Below are positions 233 through 53,642 of a stretch of DNA of 64,000 nt, one piece after another. A model generated the notes under the pieces. The model made no database searches. It saw only the letters and a list, made by a program, of their open reading frames with translations, and was not told the DNA's origin. How positions within the stretch are numbered: the first letter of the stretch is position 1; every line of letters starts with the position of its first letter. Origin of the DNA: Escherichia coli (GTDB lineage: Bacteria; Pseudomonadota; Gammaproteobacteria; Enterobacterales; Enterobacteriaceae); NCBI RefSeq assembly GCF_024223415.1, contig NZ_CP100500.1. The stretch is one strand, 5' to 3'. Both the position numbers and the translations under genes were made by a program.

Positions 233-613
233 GTTTTATGTCCTTTGCAATATTTTGAATTCACCCCTTTTGAGAGGGCGGTCAGGCGCTCAAAACCGTG
301 CAAAGTCGGCGGGCGTATTTCCCTTACGGGTATTGTATTAGCCTCACGCCCGACCATTGAATTCTCAATATCGTGGACATAAAAAATCCGCATGTCTGTC
401 GGGTGCGGTTTCCGCTTTGCAAGGTGTTTTGAGCACCATGACGCGGAATATAGCCCCGTTAACGCGACATTGTCAAACTGAAGAATTTTACGGATAGCAA
501 AAACCCCCGAACTGGTGAGGAACAGGGGTTTTTACTTTACTACTGATTTCGCGGTACGCTGATCTCAAACAGACGAGATTATCACCAGACTTGTAAAGTA
601 AGCAATGGGCGGA

Positions 614-4311: not shown

Positions 4312-4469
4312 AGTTACCTCTAACGGTGAAATTCACCGCCACCACTGAGTTGCAAATCTCATATGGGTGGCGAACTGACGAGGTTTGCAATACCGGCGTT
4401 AGAGGAAACCGGCGCGCCGAAGCGCCCCCGCCAGCCCGCCATAATGCGAACGTGGCAAAGCTTGCGACA

Positions 4470-4500
4470 ATAAAAAAGACGCTGGCGCGTCTGGTGTCGC
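4470..4500 (-). terminator. Rho-independent terminator-like hairpin downstream of the DUF2815 gene
   Basis: On the minus strand, AGACGCGCCAGCGTCT hairpin followed by TTTTTTATT (plus-strand aataaaaaagacgctggcgcgtct). Confidence 0.5.
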
Positions 4501-4691
4501 CCCTAACAATTCCGGGTTGCAAATCCCGATCTCCATTTGGGAGATTCGGTGAGCATAAACCGGAAGGGGGCGATGAGTCAATATCGGGGTAGCAGGGCGA
4601 CTGGGTGCTAACCAGAACAATACAGGTAGCTCCGGGCATATTCCCCTTTGCAAAAACACCCGGCGTTTAACCGGGCGTCTGTGAAGCAGGA

Positions 4692-34706: not shown

Positions 34707-37700
34707 ATGGGTAAAGGCAGCAGTAAGGGGCATACCCCGCGCGAAGCGAAGGACAACCTGAAGTCCACGCAGTTGCTGAGTGTGATCGATGTCATCAGCG
34801 AAGGGCCGATACAAGGACCGGTGGATGGATTAAAAAGCGTGCTGCTGAACGGTACGCCGGTGCTGGACAGTGAGGGGAATACCAATATATCCGGCGTCAC
34901 GGTGGTATTCCGGGCCGGTGAGCAGGAGCAGACGCCGCCGGAGGGATTTGAATCCTCCGGCTCCGAGACGGTGCTGGGTACGGAAGTGAAGTACGACACG
35001 CCGATTACCCGGACCATCACGTCGGCAAACATCGACCGTCTGCGCCTGACCTTCGGTGTGCAGGCACTGGTGGAAACCACCTCAAAGGGGGACCGGAATC
35101 CGTCGGAAGTCCGCCTGCTGGTTCAGATACAGCGTAACGGTCGCTGGTTAACGGAAAAAGACATCACCATTAAGGGAAAAACCACTTCACAGTATCTGGC
35201 TTCGGTGGTGGTGGATAACCTGCCGCCGCGCCCGTTCAGTATCCGGATGCGCAGGATGACACCGGACAGCACCACAGACCAGCTGCAGAACAAAACGCTC
35301 TGGTCGTCATACACCGAAATCATCGATGTGAAACAGTGCTACCCGAACACGGCACTGGTCGGTGTGCAGGTGGATTCGGAGGAGTTCGGCAGCCAGCAGG
35401 TGAGCCGTAATTATCATTTTCGCGGGCGCATTCTGCAGGTGCCGTCGAACTATAACCCGCAGACGCGGCAATACAGCGGTATCTGGGACGGAACGTTTAA
35501 ACCGGCATACAGCGATAACCCGGCCTGGTGTCTGTGGGATATGCTGACCCACCCGCGCTACGGCATGGGGAAACGTGTTGGCGCAGCGGATGTGGACAAA
35601 TGGGCGCTGTATGTCATCGGCCAGTACTGCGACCAGTCGGTGCCGGACGGCTCTGGTGGCACGGAGCCGCGCATCACCTGTAATGCCTGGCTGACCAGGC
35701 AGCGTAAGGCGTGGGATGTGCTCAGTGATTTCTGCTCGGCGATGCGCTGTATGCCGGTATGGAACGGGCAGACGCTGACGTTCGTGCAGGACCGACCGTC
35801 GGATAAGGTGTGGACCTATAACCGCAGTAATGTGGTGATGCCGGATGATGGCGCGCCGTTCCGCTACAGCTTCAGCGCCCTGAAGGACCGCCATAATGCC
35901 GTTGAGGTGAACTGGAGTGACCCGGATAACGGCCAGGAGACGGCGACAGAGCTTGTGGAGGACACGCAGGCCATTGCCCGTTACGGTCGTAACGTCACGA
36001 AGATGGATGCCTTTGGCTGTACCAGCCGGGGGCAGGCACACCGCGCCGGGCTGTGGCTGATTAAAACAGAACTGCTGGAGACGCAGACCGTGGATTTCAG
36101 CGTGGGTGCTGAAGGGCTTCGCCATGTACCGGGCGATGTCATTGAAATCTGTGATGATGACTATGCCGGTATCAGCACCGGTGGTCGTGTGCTGGCGGTG
36201 AACAGCCAGACCCGGACGCTGACGCTCGACCGTGAAATCACGCTGCCATCCTCCGGTACCACGCTGATAAGTCTGGTTGACGGAAGTGGCAATCCGGTCA
36301 GCGTGGAGGTTCAGTCCGTCACCGACGGCGTGAAGGTAAAAGTGAGCCGGGTTCCTGACGGCGTTGCCGAGTACAGCGTGTGGGGGCTGAAGCTGCCGAC
36401 GCTGCGCCAGCGCCTGTTCCGCTGCGTGAGTATCCGTGAGAACGACGACGGCACGTATGCCATCACTGCCGTGCAGCATGTACCGGAAAAAGAGGCCATC
36501 GTGGATAACGGGGCGCACTTTGACGGCGACCAGAGCGGAACGGTGAATGGTGTCACGCCGCCAGCGGTGCAGCACCTGACCGCAGAAGTCACCGCAGACA
36601 GCGGGGAATATCAGGTGCTGGCGCGCTGGGACACGCCGAAGGTGGTGAAGGGCGTGAGCTTCCTGCTTCGCCTGACCGTGGCCGCGGATGACGGCAGTGA
36701 GCGGCTGGTCAGCACGGCCCGGACGACGGAAACCACATACCGCTTCAGGCAGCTGGCGCCGGGGAACTACAGGCTGACAGTCCGGGCAGTAAATTCCCGG
36801 GGGCAGCAGGGAGACCCGGCGTCGGTATCGTTCCGGATTGCCGCACCGGCAGCGCCGTCGCGGATTGAGCTGACGCCGGGCTATTTTCAGATAACCGCCA
36901 CGCCGCATCTTGCCGTTTATGATCCGACGGTACAGTTTGAGTTCTGGTTTTCGGAAAAGCGGATTACCGATATCAGGCAGGTTGAAACCACAGCCCGTTA
37001 TCTTGGTACCGGAAGTCAGTGGCTTGTCTCCGGCCAGAATATTAAACCTGGCCATGATTATTACTTTTATATCCGCAGTGTTAACACTGTCGGTAAATCG
37101 GCATTCGTGGAGGCAGTCGGTCGGGCGAGTAATGATCCTGCCGGTTACCTTAATTTTTTCAGGGGGGCGATAAATAAAACGCATCTGGGACGGGAGATCA
37201 ATGAACGCATTGATGCCTCTGCACTGCGCACTGAAGTTGAGCAACTGGAGAATGAGATTAACCGCGAAATGACGCAGCTGGAGAAAGATGTGAGGCAGCG
37301 TGCGGAGCGTGATATCGCCGAGGTGACGAAAAAAATCACGGCGTCTGAAAACAGCATAACGGAACTGGTGGCGAAAAAGAGCGGTGAACAGTCGCTGGCC
37401 ATTGCGAAAGTCGACAGGAAAGTTGACAGCGTGAGCAGTGAAATCCGGCAGACAGTGAGCAGGAGCACGGAGGAGAACAGCCGACAGATAGCGCAGGTCA
37501 GGCAGTATGTTGATGATAAAAGTGCGCAAATAAGTACTGTTGTGGCGAAAAAGAGCGCTGAACAGTCAATGGCCATTGCGGAAGTTGACAGAAAAGTTGA
37601 CAGGATGGGAAGCGAAATCCGGCAGACAGTAAGCAGGAGCACGGAGGAGAACAGCCGACAGATAGCGCAGATCAGACAGTATGTTGATGATAAGGGAAGT

Positions 37701-38216
37701 CAGATCAAACAGAGCACGGATAAAAAACTGGGATCCTGGAATGCCAGCATTGAGCAGATACAGAAAGTTCAGGAGGACACGCGCCGGAACCTGAACAGCA
37801 TGTGGGCTGTGAAGCTGCAGCAGACACGGGATGGACGTCTCTATATTGCAGGTATTGGTGCCGGAATCGAAAATACGTCTGACGGAATTCAGAGTCAGAT
37901 CCTGATGCAGGCAGATCGTATTGCGATGATTAACCCGGAAAATGGCAATACAACACCTTTGTTTGTGGCTCAGGGTGATCAGCTGTTCATGAATGATGTT
38001 TTCATGAAAAAACTGACCGTGGATTTTGCCAGAGTGACGGGAGATATCCGGTCAGATAATTTTCATTCCGGTAGTCCGGGGTGGCGTTTATCAAGAAACG
38101 GCAGCCTTGAAATTAACTCAGGAAGGCCCGGCGCAGGCCGCCTGTTTTTCAATGGCGAGCGAATCGACGTATATGACGATAACAATGTGTTAAGAGTACG
38201 ACTGGGGAGACTGTAA
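34707..38216 (+). CDS. J: Central tail fibre / host-specificity protein (lambda gpJ-like) with an internal ~174-bp tandem duplication (about 37368..37716) and a C-terminal region I cannot match to lambda J
   Basis: 1169-aa ORF in the lambda J position; tandem repeat read directly. Confidence 0.85.
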
Positions 38217-38476
38217 TGTTCGGAGTCCGGGTATGGCGCAAAGGGCGCCTTGTGACACATGAAATAAACCCAACAGGGGTGCTGGATGTGATCACTGAAG
38301 GGACGGGGCAGCGTTCTTATACTCCTTTGCAGGGCTGGCGTCTGGAAGTCTGTTCACCGGCCATTCTGATTAACGGTCAGGGAAGTCATACCAGTGCCAG
38401 TGTATCCGGCTGGACAGTGCACTATGCCAACACAAGCTGGCTAAGACCCGTGCTGGTCATGATAAGGGGGATCTGA
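38216..38476 (+). CDS. Hypothetical protein downstream of J
   Basis: 86-aa ORF, start overlapping the J stop. Confidence 0.4.
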   Translation: MFGVRVWRKGRLVTHEINPTGVLDVITEGTGQRSYTPLQGWRLEVCSPAILINGQGSHTSASVSGWTVHYANTSWLRPVLVMIRGI

Positions 38477-39138
38477 TGTTTGCACTTAAATTAACTGATG
38501 AGCGGGGGAGAGAATGGATATCACCTGTTGCGCCGCCACTGAACCTTGTGCGCCGTTTTCATTTCACACTGAGTGCGCGTGATGCGGTGATGCAGTTTAT
38601 CGACACCGGGGTGCCGACGAATTATCGTTGCGTGATTTTTATTAAACAGATAAGCGGTAATCAGTCCTTCCATGGTGAAATGGTTCAGCTTAACGGTACC
38701 TGGCAGTATGACATTTTCAGCGCTGGTACAGGGCAGGAGCCGGGCATGGAACAGGACAGCACATATGTTGTTTATGTTTTTGCCAACATGGTGAATGTAT
38801 GGCCGCAATGGGGAATACAGTTGTGCGACAGTCATGGCAGGGTGGTCTGGAACACGGAAATGCTGCCACTGGAAGTAAAAATGACGCGAATATGGGAAAA
38901 GGATGTACCGATCAGTGTGGGACATGATGTGGCCGTAATGCCGGGGTGTACCCAGTGGACGACAGTTCAGGAAGGGGAGAGTTATTACTGGTATACCGCC
39001 AGTTTTAATGCCAGAAACTCACAGTTATGGCGTCAGTCAACTTTTGCTGAAGATAACGTAGCGGCGCCCAATGATAATTCAGGTGTTGTTAATAACCTCT
39101 GTTATTACATAAATGCAGAAATTTATGATGCGTACTGA
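38476..39138 (+). CDS. Hypothetical protein downstream of J
   Basis: 220-aa ORF, translationally coupled to the upstream ORF. Confidence 0.45.
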   Translation: MFALKLTDERGREWISPVAPPLNLVRRFHFTLSARDAVMQFIDTGVPTNYRCVIFIKQISGNQSFHGEMVQLNGTWQYDIFSAGTGQEPGMEQDSTYVVYVFANMVNVWPQWGIQLCDSHGRVVWNTEMLPLEVKMTRIWEKDVPISVGHDVAVMPGCTQWTTVQEGESYYWYTASFNARNSQLWRQSTFAEDNVAAPNDNSGVVNNLCYYINAEIYDAY

Positions 39139-39159: not shown

Positions 39160-39405
39160 ATGAAAATAATCGTCTGCACTTTTTTGCTGTTTCTTGTATC
39201 AGGTTGCGCGGGGTACCGTTCAGTTACGGAGAGAGTCCGGTGCACCGGTGTGCTGAGTCCCGGGGTTTTACAGCGAGCTTATACGGTAGATCTTACAGGG
39301 AAAATAGAAACGAAAAGCGGCACTGTGTATAAAGTATCAGCTCCGAGATTTTATGGTCAGTGGGTGAGTGAAGATATGTTTACGAAAGTTTCGTGCGTGA
39401 AGTAA
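39160..39405 (+). CDS. Small lipoprotein, Cor-like candidate (superinfection exclusion against FhuA-dependent phages)
   Basis: Signal peptide with lipobox (FLVSGC); ~80-aa lipoprotein between J and side tail fibre gene, the position cor occupies in phi80/N15/HK022-type phages as recalled. Confidence 0.4.
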   Translation: MKIIVCTFLLFLVSGCAGYRSVTERVRCTGVLSPGVLQRAYTVDLTGKIETKSGTVYKVSAPRFYGQWVSEDMFTKVSCVK

Positions 39406-39477
39406 TCATAAAAACACCCGATTGTAAATGAATGACGACGCCCGCAATTTTGCGGGATTATTTTTTATGGAGCGAGT

Positions 39478-41292
39478 ATGGCGGCTGTAAAAATTTCAGG
39501 CGTGCTGAGGGACGGAACCGGAAAACCGGTACCGGGATGCATTATTGAGCTGAAAGCGAAGAGAACCAGCGAGACAGTCATCGCCACGACAGTGGCTTAT
39601 GGCATGCCGGAAGAGACGGGGAGTTACAGTATGGATGTGGAGCCAGGAATATACAGGGTGACACTCAATACAGAAGGTTACCGTCCTTCGTATGTGGGAG
39701 ATATCGTGGTCAGGGAGGATTCTTCACCGGGAACACTGAATAAATTTCTGATGGAGATGGAAGATGCTCCTTATTATCCGAAGGCGTTGTCAGAGCTGGA
39801 GGCTGTGGTGCAGTCCATACTGCACAGAGCAGAGTCCGCGGCATCTGAGGCGGAGGAAGCCCGGAAACGAGCAGCATCTGCCCGGGGACCACGAGGAGAG
39901 AAAGGGGATACCGGCGCTCGTGGTGAAAGAGGCATTACCGGGCCACAGGGGCCAAAAGGTGAAACAGGAGCACGTGGCCCGGCAGGACCACAGGGACCAA
40001 AAGGTGAAACAGGTGAACGCGGTCCGGCAGGTCCACAGGGACTAAAGGGCGATACAGGTGAACGCGGCCCGGCAGGTCCACAGGGACCAAAGGGTGAAAC
40101 AGGTGCACGCGGCCCGGCAGGTCCACAGGGAGCAAAGGGCGAAACAGGTGAACGCGGCCCGGCAGGTCCACAGGGAGCAAAGGGCGAAACAGGTGCACGT
40201 GGTCCGGAAGGCCCTCAGGGTCTGAAGGGAGAAAAGGGTGAGCGAGGAGAAAAAGGCCCTAAGGGGGATAAAGGAGATCCGGGAGGTCCACAGGGACCAA
40301 AGGGGGATACAGGTGAACGCGGCCCGGCAGGTCCACAGGGATCAAAGGGCGATACAGGTGAACGTGGCCCGGCAGGTCCTCAGGGACCAAAGGGGGATAC
40401 AGGTGAACGTGGCCCGGAAGGTCCACAGGGAGCAAAGGGTGAAACAGGTGAACGCGGCCCGGCAGGACCACAGGGACCAAAAGGTGAAACAGGTGAACGC
40501 GGTCCGACAGGTCCACAGGGAGCAAAAGGTGAAACAGGAGCACGCGGTCCGGCAGGTCCTCAGGGACCAAGAGGAGAGTCAGCCCGTGGACAACTGCTGA
40601 ATGGTGATCTGAACCGACTGGGACGAGTGACCGATCAGGGTGATTATTATCAGCCATCAGACAGTGGGGCTACACGAGAAAATAATTATCCGATTCAGAG
40701 AGCGGGTTATCTTCAGGTAAGAGTTGGTGCATGGGGATATTGCCAGCATGAATATACAACCTGGAACCCACCACGAAAGTTCGTAAGAACTGTTACTGGT
40801 AATTTTACCGGTAATGGCCCCTGGTCTGAATGGAAAGAGCTGGGAGCCCAGGGGGAGCGTGGTCCACAGGGACCAAAAGGTGAAACAGGTGCACGCGGTC
40901 CGGCAGGTCCACAGGGACTAAAGGGCGAAACAGGTGCACGTGGCCTGGCAGGTCCTCGGGGGCCAAGAGGGTATACAGGTGAACGCGGCCCGGCAGGTCC
41001 ACAGGGGCCAAGAGGAGAAGCGGGGCGGCCAGCGAGCGTCGGAAGTGTTTATTCCGTGGGGTCTTATGTTCTGGGGATCATAGAACGAAATCATGAGATA
41101 ACAAATACCCGTCAAATACCCGGGTATCGTATCAGACAGGCCGTTATTGTGTCGTCGTCATCGGATAAACTTACAGATATCCGCTTTTTATTTGGCAATC
41201 CTATGCTTGGTACATGGATGTTATGCACAACTAACATGACGGTGAATAATATCAGTGGGACGATTTGGGGCCTGTTTCAGAGAATACTGTGA
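39478..41292 (+). CDS. stf: Side tail fibre protein (Stf-like N-terminus) with long collagen-like Gly-X-Y repeat region
   Basis: N-terminus [18 protein letters not shown] resembles lambda Stf; two blocks of GXY triplets ([19 protein letters not shown]...). Confidence 0.8.
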
Positions 41293-41307: not shown

Positions 41308-41883
41308 ATGAAGGTCGATAAAATCACGTCACCAGTGTGGGCTGACAGGGGTCATACGACCATAAACTGTATAGTGAAGTTTTCAGACGCGGAAACAGAA
41401 TGTGTATTTACAGCAAGTGCGGATGATCCTGAGTCTTACGGTCGTGAAATATTTGAAGCCTGCATAAGAGGTGATGCAGGGCCGGTAGGTGAGTACCGGG
41501 CAAATGATGATATGGCTGTGGAAGAAGCACGCAGGATGAAAAACGCGGAGATAAATGCCTGGCGTGATGCGATGGAGGCGTCAGGGTATGTTTTTGAGCA
41601 CAGAGGACGGAAATGGGATTATGGAAAGGAAACCATGACACGTCTTGGAATGTCGGCATCAGCGGCCAGAGGCGGTGTGTTGCCGGAAGGATTTTTCTGG
41701 ACGGACGCAGAGAATAATGATGTACCGATGACGGCAGATGAACTGATATCCCTGAGTGATGCTGCTGGTAAAGCGATGTTCAGGAAAGGCCTTGAAATAC
41801 ATATAAGGCAAAGGGAGATGAAAAAGGCAATAGCAGAACTGAGTGACAGTGAAACCATTCTGGCGTACAGGGTTGGATGGTGA
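41308..41883 (+). CDS. tfa: Tail fibre assembly/chaperone-like protein
   Basis: 191-aa ORF immediately after the fibre gene; assignment by position and weak similarity. Confidence 0.45.
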   Translation: MKVDKITSPVWADRGHTTINCIVKFSDAETECVFTASADDPESYGREIFEACIRGDAGPVGEYRANDDMAVEEARRMKNAEINAWRDAMEASGYVFEHRGRKWDYGKETMTRLGMSASAARGGVLPEGFFWTDAENNDVPMTADELISLSDAAGKAMFRKGLEIHIRQREMKKAIAELSDSETILAYRVGW

Positions 41884-42321: not shown

Positions 42322-43731
42322 ATGAAATTTATAATGGCAAAGAATGTATTGGCAATGGCGGTTACCGGTGCGCTGTTATGTTACTCTGTGGGGGTTATGG
42401 CAGAAGAGAGTTTTAATGTAGATGGATATGAGGTTACTCTGTATGATAATGGTGCGGCAGTAATATCAAAAGGTAATGATGTTAATCTTATTAATACTAT
42501 TACTGGAGCTAATACAGGGCGTATTGTCCCGAATGATTCTATTACGCGTGCTATATTAGCAGCTCCTGAGAATGCTAGGCATATTGTTGCTCAGGATTTG
42601 CTAACTTACCCCATCTACTCAGATGCATTAAAAGCCGAAAACATCAGAAATATAAAAGCAGAAGATATAAAGTCCATTGTTGATACAAAAGAATCACTAC
42701 AAAAAATAATCAAGCCAGAAAACAAGGATGATTATATCGCCGCTGTTAATGCTGGTGGTACCGCTGAGGATTTTATTAAAATTAGTAATACAACATCGGG
42801 ATTGTCATCATTGTATAAAAATGTAGTTGAAGGCCAGAATTTTGTTCTGGATTCATCAGGCCGAATCACTGCTGACGGAAGGGCTGACGGAAATGCTCAG
42901 ACAGTCCCTGTTAAAGAATTCGTCGTGGAGCTGGATAATCGTACCCGCAACCTTGGGGTTGAAGTGAAATCACAGGGAGACAGTCTGCGTGGTGAGATAG
43001 GTGGTGTATACAGAGATGCCCGTGCTCATACTGACAGTCAGGTCACAGCAGTACGTGATGAACTGAAGGCAGAGGGAGACAGTCTGCGCGGTGAGATAGG
43101 CGGTGTATACAGAGATGCCCGTGCTCATACTGACAGTCAGGTTACAGCAGTACGTGATGAACTCAGCAGGGATATTATTGCAGGCACATCGGCAGCGGTG
43201 GCGTATACGGATGCATCTTCTCTTGCTCTTCAGGATGAAATAAAAGAAAAAGCGGATGAAACAGTTCAGGTTTCCCGGGCTTATACAGATAAAAGTGTAC
43301 GGGATGCCCGTAAAGAAGCGAAAAGCCAGGCAGAACATCTCAGCGATGTGCTTGTGAAGAACAGGGCGCAGACGGATGCAGCAATAGCCTCAAATACAGC
43401 AGCGATAAGGAATAACAGTCATCGTCTGGATTTGACGGAAGCCTGGCAGAAGATGGCGACAGAGAGAATGAATAATATGCAGGAGCAGATTAAAGAGAAC
43501 CGGAAGGAGTTAAGGGAGAGTGCAGCCCAGAGCGCGGCACTGGCCGGTCTTTTCCAGCCATACAGTGTTGGAAAATTTAACGCGACAGCAGCCGTTGGTG
43601 GTTACCGTGATGAGCAGGCCATTGCGGTGGGCGTGGGCTACCGTTTCACAGAGAATGTGGCAGGAAAAGTTGCAGTTGCTGCAGGTGGGTCATCCGCATC
43701 GTGGAATGCTGGTGTGAATTTTGAGTTCTGA
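42322..43731 (+). CDS. Trimeric autotransporter adhesin-like protein (YadA-like C-terminal anchor); resembles prophage-encoded Eib immunoglobulin-binding proteins
   Basis: Signal peptide; coiled-coil stalk with 33-aa tandem repeat; C-terminal anchor [10 protein letters not shown] ... [20 protein letters not shown]. Confidence 0.7.
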
Positions 43732-53456: not shown

Positions 53457-53642
53457 AGTGGCTCATTCACCGACTTATGTCAGCCCCTTCGGGACGTGCT
53501 ACATAAAATTCGAATGACGCACAACAAGGTGCCTGCCGTCCAACTTCTGATATCAGCGTAGCTATATCAACCATCGGGCGAAACGTCGAGTTAGGCACCG
53601 CCTTATTCCATAACAAAGCCGGGTAATTCCCGGCTTTGTTGT
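53457..53642 (+). ncRNA. glmY: GlmY small regulatory RNA
   Basis: Begins agtggctcattcaccgacttatgtcagcccc downstream of the sigma-54 promoter, ends at terminator aaagccgggtaattcccggctttgttgt; located between purL and glrK as in E. coli K-12. Confidence 0.8.

Follow-up and report, generated by a model that had tools for sequence, protein, structure and literature searches.

We examined a stretch of 64,000 nucleotides (nt) of Escherichia coli DNA (NCBI RefSeq assembly GCF_024223415.1, contig NZ_CP100500.1; the whole stretch is referred to as the window) and, in particular, a gene located at 39478..41292 on the plus strand. It is highly probable that the region encodes the collagen shaft of a lambda-like prophage's side tail fibre, and that misalignment of the 45-base-pair (bp) units from which the shaft is built changes its length between related prophages.

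The gene is, by homology, that of a lambdoid side tail fibre, as the initial annotation had named it. Residues 3-133 of the encoded protein matched the Pfam family phage_tail_N (PF08400) with an E value of 4.4e-40, and the N-terminal collar domain was matched to a tail fibre chain of known structure (PDB 9E7M/9MGH). A PHROG search placed the protein in tail fibre families, and its relatives in RefSeq are annotated as 'prophage tail fiber N-terminal domain-containing protein'. Furthermore, the gene lies downstream of the tail tip gene J in a lambda-like prophage. Positions of about 1550-35444 of the window were collinear with a prophage of E. coli F1022 and 88-97% identical to it, and the fibre regions of the two were 99.2% identical. 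The lambda-like gene set of the F1022 prophage is complete and comprises terminase, portal, capsid, tail tube, tape measure, L, K, I, and J. The gene and its parts are as follows (aa, amino acids; ORF, open reading frame).

39478..41292, plus strand: side tail fibre gene, collagen-like, with EPclC-type architecture; 604 aa plus stop, recognised as an ORF and by PF08400, PF01391, and the PHROG tail fibre families
39484..39759, plus strand: collar domain, aa 3-94; phmmer match to residues 2-93 of the 'Tail fiber protein' chain of PDB 9E7M/9MGH, E value 7.6e-29
39775..39885, plus strand: Ala/Glu-rich helical segment at the end of the PfN domain, aa 100-136, within the PF08400 match
39886..40290, plus strand: collagen block 1a, aa 137-271, 45 Gly-X-Y triplets
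40273..40296, plus strand: register break G-D-P-G-G-P-Q-G, aa 266-273, read from the sequence, which adds a single residue to the Gly-X-Y pattern
40294..40581, plus strand: collagen block 1b, aa 273-368, 32 triplets
40582..40842, plus strand: non-collagen globular insert, aa 369-455, 87 residues
40843..41031, plus strand: collagen block 2, aa 456-518, 21 triplets
41032..41289, plus strand: C-terminal tip domain, aa 519-604, 86 residues, ending in GLFQRI

The runs of 45, 32, and 21 triplets were the only Gly-X-Y runs of at least six triplets when all six frames of the 64-kb window were searched. The longest run in each of 20 block-shuffled windows of preserved composition was 3-5 triplets, and the Pfam family Collagen (PF01391) matched the fibre protein with an E value of 5.6e-48. 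Block 1a begins with an 18-residue lead-in, which is followed by six 45-bp units (39940-40209) and then by a divergent Lys/Glu-rich segment of 25 residues (40210-40284) that ends in the register break. Block 1b also contains six 45-bp units (40285-40554), the first of which begins within the register break, and the residues GPQGPRGES follow these units. Block 2 consists of approximately three units (40861-40995) and a 12-residue terminus. The two Gly-X-Y blocks that had been proposed initially, at 39886..40590 and 40850..41025, agree within about ten bases with the runs found here; the Lys/Glu-rich segment and the register break are features of the first block that the initial description did not contain.

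A unit of 27-36 bp had also been proposed, and this length did not hold. Tandem Repeats Finder gave a period of 45 bp, corresponding to 15 residues, with 14.3 copies at 39943-40570 and 3.5 copies at 40861-41019, and a separate repeat search gave the same spacing of 45 bp between copies. The self-identity of the first block was 0.78 at a lag of 45 bp and 0.72 at a lag of 90 bp, whereas it was just 0.45-0.49 at lags of 27 and 36 bp. To call the units near-identical was somewhat generous, as the pairwise DNA identity of the 13 canonical units was 78-98% with a mean of 88%. The longest exact repeat was 51 bp (at 39976 and 40456), and 118 distinct 20-mers were present more than once. Since 45 bp is a multiple of three, changes in unit number alter the length of the protein and not its on/off expression. 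Several ORFs that overlap the repeat (e.g. 39935..40198 on the minus strand, 40238..40600 on the plus strand, and 40259..40657 on the minus strand) were rejected as by-products of the repeat without support of their own; the other frames and the opposite strand are open there because the repeat lacks stop codons.

The repeat DNA was carried by 22 of 5,426 complete E. coli genomes at the megablast level, and the fibre gene was extracted from every distinct match. The alleles are listed below with the number of units in block 1a/block 1b/block 2 and the length of the protein.

Window allele: 6/6/3, 604 aa
L001 (F1022): 6/6/3, 604 aa
L002 (B771): 6/6/3, 601 aa
L003 (NRZ14408; eleven further records have the same alignment statistics): 6/6/3, 601 aa
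L004 and L014 (Ch1, two loci): 6/7/3, 616 aa
L010: 6/7/3, 616 aa
L011 (strain 135): 6/6/2, 586 aa
L006 (ECCNB12-2): 6/3/3, 556 aa
L013 (ECCNB12-2, second locus, 5' end cut by IS66): 6/9/1, 543 aa as annotated
L007 (TUM9803): 4/3/3, 529 aa
L008 = L015 (TUM1886, two loci, identical DNA): 8/4/0, no insert, 457 aa

Six unit-count patterns and seven lengths, ranging from 457 to 616 aa, were observed among the twelve complete-frame copies in complete E. coli genomes. The initial annotation had suggested that the repeats are a site of fibre-length polymorphism and that repeat numbers be compared among related prophages; the counts proved to differ, and the suggestion was borne out. The array is a variable-number tandem repeat, in that unit number differs between copies that are otherwise nearly identical, the non-repeat parts of the alleles being 97-100% identical. 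The gaps in pairwise comparisons of alleles were mostly of 45, 90, or 135 bp or were fragments summing to these lengths; a large deletion in L008 and a small difference of 3/12 bp where the second collagen block ends were the exceptions. Relatives carried 3, 2, 1, or 0 units in block 2. In addition, a 441-aa relative from a representative library (P0121) lacked the break segment; its first block was single and held just four units, and its second block held approximately two.

Change is more rapid in the array than in the remainder of the fibre gene. Between L003, from a human wound isolate, and L011, from a chicken isolate of Chinese origin, a single 45-bp gap was the only difference, with no substitution. 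The window allele and its closest relative, L001, were equal in length and differed at 22 positions, all of which were located at 40302-40560 in block 1b; the remaining 1,119 bp, which lie outside the first collagen domain, were identical. When the arrays were coded by assigning one letter to each distinct 45-bp sequence, a minisatellite-like pattern of local duplications and deletions appeared, as in ABklUF (L006), AekeklUF (L008), and ABkl (L007). The order of the unit variants differed between alleles even at an equal unit count, and some identical unit sequences were found in both block 1b and block 2. In L008 and L015, the insert was absent and block 1b was joined directly to the 12-residue terminus of block 2, which is the outcome to be expected if the two collagen blocks recombined with each other and the insert was thereby removed in frame.

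Three genomes (TUM1886, Ch1, and ECCNB12-2) had two prophages bearing the fibre gene. The two 616-aa alleles of Ch1 were 14 positions apart, and ECCNB12-2 carried the patterns 6/3/3 and 6/9/1; such paired copies could recombine with each other. Elements of the IS66 family (ISCro1-like) recurred at the fibre module of the relatives. They were located inside the fibre gene in L005, L009, and L013 and adjoined the DUF4376 gene described below in L001, L007, and L011, and the window copy had none. Most relatives of the C-terminal half in a large protein collection (P0001-P0016) were labelled 'partial' and came from contigs of about 0.5-2 kb. Therefore, short-read assemblies break inside the collagen repeat, and the family is systematically fragmented in draft genomes.

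The domain homologies, the anatomy of the array, and the differences in unit number between relatives are direct observations. From the biochemistry of the EPcl family, which comprises collagen-like proteins of E. coli prophages, and from the Ur-lambda structure of the fibre, we infer a triple helix, its dimensions, and receptor binding as follows; a probable molecular route of rearrangement is given after them. Three chains would dock on the tail via their N-terminal collar domains, as suggested by the homology to lambda Stf. In Ur-lambda, 12 copies of the side tail fibre collar domain ring the tail tube/tip junction and bear four trimeric fibres (PMC12617516); judging from the sequence match, the collar domain described here should dock the fibre at this junction. 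The chains would then join in the short Ala/Glu-rich segment, which by analogy is probably a trimeric coiled coil leading to the collagen helix. This segment would be followed by a collagen triple helix, approximately 232 residues long and interrupted once by the conserved register break, and then by a small globular insert forming a knob, a second triple helix of 63 residues, and the 86-residue tip, which would contact the cell-surface receptor. When the helix length was computed at 2.88 Å per residue, the first helix would measure approximately 67 nm and the second approximately 18 nm, each 15-residue unit would contribute approximately 4.3 nm, and the alleles would span roughly 63-88 nm of collagen.

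Misaligned pairing between 45-bp units would add or remove whole units in frame. The route would be replication slippage or unequal homologous recombination, either within one copy or between two prophages in a cell, and pairing between the two collagen blocks would delete the globular insert in frame. The exact repeated stretches of 20-51 bp are a substrate for misalignment, and the two copies in some genomes allow ectopic exchange. No Chi site was found inside the fibre gene, and the nearest was located at 42751.

The tip is probably a receptor-binding and/or trimerisation domain, receptor binding being suggested by its position. Neither the isolated insert nor the isolated tip had a Pfam match even at E<=10. 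The pattern VG(S/A)(F/Y)...GTW..C...G(L/I)F(Q/E)RI in the tip was common to several other E. coli prophage fibres. A phmmer search of the tip against 1.84 billion representatives gave six matches, two of which were convincing and belonged to the same E. coli fibre, and no relative of the tip was found among the IMG/VR viral contigs. A megablast search of the fibre gene against 50,697 phage records gave no match; tblastn against the phage records gave partial relatives only, the best being PhiR12_5 with 44% identity. The exact 604-aa allele was absent from a collection of 15 billion proteins.

Several points weigh against the explanation of the array as the shaft of a fibre whose length changes by unit misalignment. 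Receptor binding by the tip is an assumption because the insert and the tip lack a recognisable fold. Structure predictions of the monomer cannot bear on the formation of a trimer or a triple helix, and the prophage is known here from its genes alone. Several of the 22 records are re-assemblies of one strain and the independent alleles are few. Public assemblies were the source of the repeat counts, and tandem repeats can be mis-sized when long reads are assembled. The polymorphism was observed between strains.

A rival view, which we consider very improbable, is that the differences in repeat number are artefacts of assembly and the true gene has one length everywhere. It would agree with such an artefact that most relatives in the large protein collection are partial and lie on contigs of about 1 kb, where short-read assemblies break, and that the exact 604-aa sequence is absent from this collection. 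However, the twelve compared copies keep the reading frame intact, with gaps mostly of whole units, and the order of distinguishable unit variants differs, which collapse or expansion during assembly would not yield. The 601-aa allele was found with identical alignment statistics in 12 records (H3-H14) with at least 8 distinct strain names, although five of these records share a length of 5,067,659 bp, as if one strain had been assembled repeatedly. Furthermore, two loci of a single genome carried the 457-aa allele in identical form, base for base, and variable Col lengths had already been observed in Sanger-era genomes (Ghosh et al., PMC3368898). Even less probable, to the point that we give it hardly any credence, is that the protein is no part of the virion and that the prophage expresses it as an adhesin or virulence factor, a bacterial surface mimic of collagen of the kind of Legionella Lcl or streptococcal Scl1/Scl2. 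Partial NCBIfam matches to Lcl, SclB, and SclA were indeed obtained with E values of 1e-56 to 1e-59, and a neighbouring gene encodes a YadA-type surface adhesin. These matches, however, reached only 190-200 bits against curated cutoffs of 325-500 and covered the Gly-X-Y part only; the N-terminus is a tail-collar domain and not an export signal, no LPXTG or other anchor was found in the Pfam and NCBIfam scans, and the gene is located within the tail module between J and the fibre accessory gene.

A possible, though rather unlikely, alternative is that the collagen arrays serve as in-frame linkers for recombination, so that exchange, loss, or gain of the flanking globular modules (insert and tip) alters receptor specificity and the length is incidental. 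The loss of the insert in L008/L015 is as expected from inter-block recombination, and the insert module recurs with 62% identity in the fibre fragment P0018, where a Pf2 repeat and a coiled coil follow in place of collagen. Tips of the same family are found on differing shafts (P0020, P0023, P0032, P0073, and PhiR12_5), the same fibre gene is preceded either by lom or by two other ORFs, depending on the prophage, and collagen-like repeats of Streptococcus thermophilus phages have been proposed as recombination hot spots. On the other hand, the differences observed are mostly plain changes in unit number with all modules kept, and the insert and tip are 97-100% identical among the alleles, with no module exchange in this set. 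Such exchange is compatible with length change by unit misalignment and does not exclude it. More doubtful is the proposal that unit number is under selection, with fibre length tuned to the thickness of the O-antigen or capsule in a fast contingency locus within the lysogen population. The repeat changes outpace substitutions (L003 compared with L011, and the window with L001), seven lengths occur among twelve complete-frame copies, and an 81-nt deletion of collagen repeats accompanied host-range expansion in Guarani (PMC7242381). Neutral unequal recombination, however, predicts the same pattern; the changes are in frame and provide no on/off switch, unlike those of classical contingency loci, and lambda side fibres are dispensable for plaque formation (PMC12617516). 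Selection on unit number would likewise be compatible with length change by unit misalignment. As a speculation that we regard as somewhat less probable again, the 45-bp array may combine a fast in-frame length dial with a splice site for modules, giving each lysogen population mixed fibre lengths and occasional insert-less fibres as bet-hedging of host range. If so, the variants would differ in adsorption to hosts of differing O-antigen or capsule depth.

The genes around the fibre gene that are of relevance to its assignment are as follows.

34707..38216, plus strand: tail tip protein J (TipJ, central fibre); NCBIfam NF049904 lambda_TipJ, 1979 bits against a cutoff of 1950
41308..41883, plus strand: DUF4376 protein; PF14301 with an E value of 2e-20 and PHROG 1141 'tail fiber protein' with an E value of 1.4e-62
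42322..43731, plus strand: trimeric autotransporter gene of YadA-anchor (Eib-like) type, two genes downstream of the fibre gene and beyond DUF4376

The DUF4376 gene starts 16 nt downstream of the fibre gene with a Shine-Dalgarno sequence of its own, and it followed the fibre gene in every relative inspected; its product is a putative fibre assembly or accessory protein. At the position matching the YadA-anchor gene, L003 carries a gene annotated as 'immunoglobulin-binding protein'. The YadA-anchor gene itself contains a 99-bp tandem repeat of 2.1 copies with 93% identity (42960..43163), and its annotated length in related prophages was 1038 to 1647 bp; it may be a second length-variable repeat gene. 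A tandem duplication was also observed in the C-terminal third of J, where a repeated coiled-coil-like segment is encoded by 1.9 copies of a 174-bp sequence with 90% identity (37368..37693, plus strand). The length of J in the relatives was 3510, 3543, or 3906 bp.

Two ORFs of 86 and 220 aa lie between J and the fibre gene (38216..39138, plus strand), and the 220-aa ORF matched PHROG 425 'membrane associated protein' with an E value of 3.3e-27. In L003 and L011, an Ail/Lom gene was found in place of these two ORFs before a fibre N-terminus that was 99.5-100% identical, and a mosaic junction is therefore located just upstream of the fibre gene. Between the two ORFs and the fibre gene there is an 81-aa ORF with a lipoprotein signal, LLFLVSGC (39160..39405, plus strand). 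It weakly resembled the superinfection-exclusion lipoprotein Cor (PHROG 1119, E value 8.2e-7; NCBIfam NF047972, 28.4 bits against a cutoff of 31). Identical copies of the 81-aa protein are common in E. coli assemblies, and the RefSeq relatives inspected have no annotated gene there. Furthermore, a GC-rich hairpin resembling an intrinsic terminator (cccgca-attt-tgcggg, 39441-39456, with a T run to 39466) was observed just before the Shine-Dalgarno sequence (GGAG, 39469-39472) and the ATG of the fibre gene. The fibre gene would then need antiterminated late transcription or its own promoter. In the prophage early region, sRNA-Xcc1, C4 antisense RNA, and isrK scored above the Rfam gathering score (272..355, 4363..4446, and 4472..4545, all on the minus strand). 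GlmY likewise exceeded this score on the right side (53457..53604, plus strand), where it marks the host chromosome, and no tRNA genes were found in the window.

Side fibres govern the rate of adsorption of a temperate phage and the choice of cells to which it adsorbs, and in this respect the array is of modest importance, although it leaves the present view of such fibres as it was. The prophage also carries an Eib/YadA-like adhesin gene, and its host range could be altered by in-frame change of the shaft length or by loss of the knob. Because short-read assemblies break in the gene, its alleles are under-sampled, and repeat counts are best taken from long-read or PCR data only. The pattern of 45-bp units could serve as a fine-scale typing marker for the prophage lineage.

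Like lambda Stf (Ur-lambda, 9E7M/9MGH), the fibre has a homologous collar, and its gene is located downstream of J with a small accessory gene next to it. The side fibres of lambda speed adsorption through OmpC and are dispensable for plaque formation (PMC12617516). By homology, the collar of the present fibre would bind the tail at the gpV/gpM junction as that of lambda Stf does, and by analogy four trimeric side fibres would presumably speed adsorption. The shaft of lambda, in contrast, is an alpha-helical or beta-structured coiled coil, whereas that described here is collagen-like. Lambda also has a gp37-like tip and Tfa, whereas the fibre gene here has an unrelated 86-residue tip and is accompanied by the DUF4376 gene; no gp37-like match was obtained for the tip in Pfam, PHROG, or the PDB. 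The viable phage PhiR12_5, whose host is E. coli C, carries the same three-gene module of a collagen fibre, a DUF4376 protein, and a YadA-like protein, and its fibre has a GDPGGPPG break and a tip ending in GLFQRAY; a literature search on the PhiR12 phages yielded no relevant reports. The collagen of PhiR12_5 lacks regular 15-residue units, and the regular 45-bp array of the window therefore looks like a lineage-specific amplification.

Gly-X-Y DNA in host-recognition proteins, with flanking variable modules and in-frame deletions, is also found in the antireceptors of S. thermophilus phages, where the hot-spot proposal mentioned above was made, and in ORF8 of the virophage Guarani, which has five 27-nt collagen-like repeats and in which the 81-nt deletion was observed (PMC7242381). 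The proteins and hosts are unrelated to those described here and the arrays are shorter there; a link to host range was shown in those systems.

The closest published counterparts are EPclA to EPclD, the collagen-like proteins of E. coli prophages (Ghosh et al. 2012, PLoS One 7:e37872, PMC3368898). A role as side tail fibres was proposed for them, and recombinant EPclA was found by circular dichroism, analytical ultracentrifugation, and electron microscopy to be a dumbbell-shaped trimer with a thermally stable collagen triple helix melting at 42 °C (PMC3368898). The lengths of Col and PCoil vary between copies, proteins with two Col domains usually have one G-X-P-G-G-P-X-G interruption in the first Col, and the commonest triplets are GPQ, GPK, GPA, GER, and GET (PMC3368898). 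EPclA and EPclB, which also have the PfN domain, differ from the present protein in having a PCoil of 109-116 residues and a PfC (PF06820) C-terminus, neither of which was detected here. EPclB also has a Pf2 repeat (PF03406) between its Col domains, and no PF03406 match was obtained here; the insert resembles a module that lies beside the Pf2 repeat in P0018 and is not itself Pf2.

The published description of the EPclC class, whose type example is ORF-401, fits the fibre protein. As in EPclC, a PfN (PF08400) N-terminus is followed directly by collagen, here from aa 137, with no Ala/Ser-rich PCoil. There are two collagen domains (45+32 and 21 triplets), the first of which has the G-X-P-G-G-P-X-G break, here GDPGGPQG. 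The C-terminus is unrelated to PfC, with no PF06820 match of the whole protein or the isolated tip at E<=10; the triplet preferences are the same, and the collagen length varies between copies. The site in the prophage is likewise near an Eib/YadA-like gene, as for ORF-401 in the P-EibA prophage of ECOR-9. Unlike in EPclC, the first collagen domain is approximately twice as long (232 residues compared with 106-118 in the listed examples) and is built of highly regular 15-residue units. Taken together, prophage fibres of variable collagen length have been described since 2012, and the allele presented here adds to this known class.

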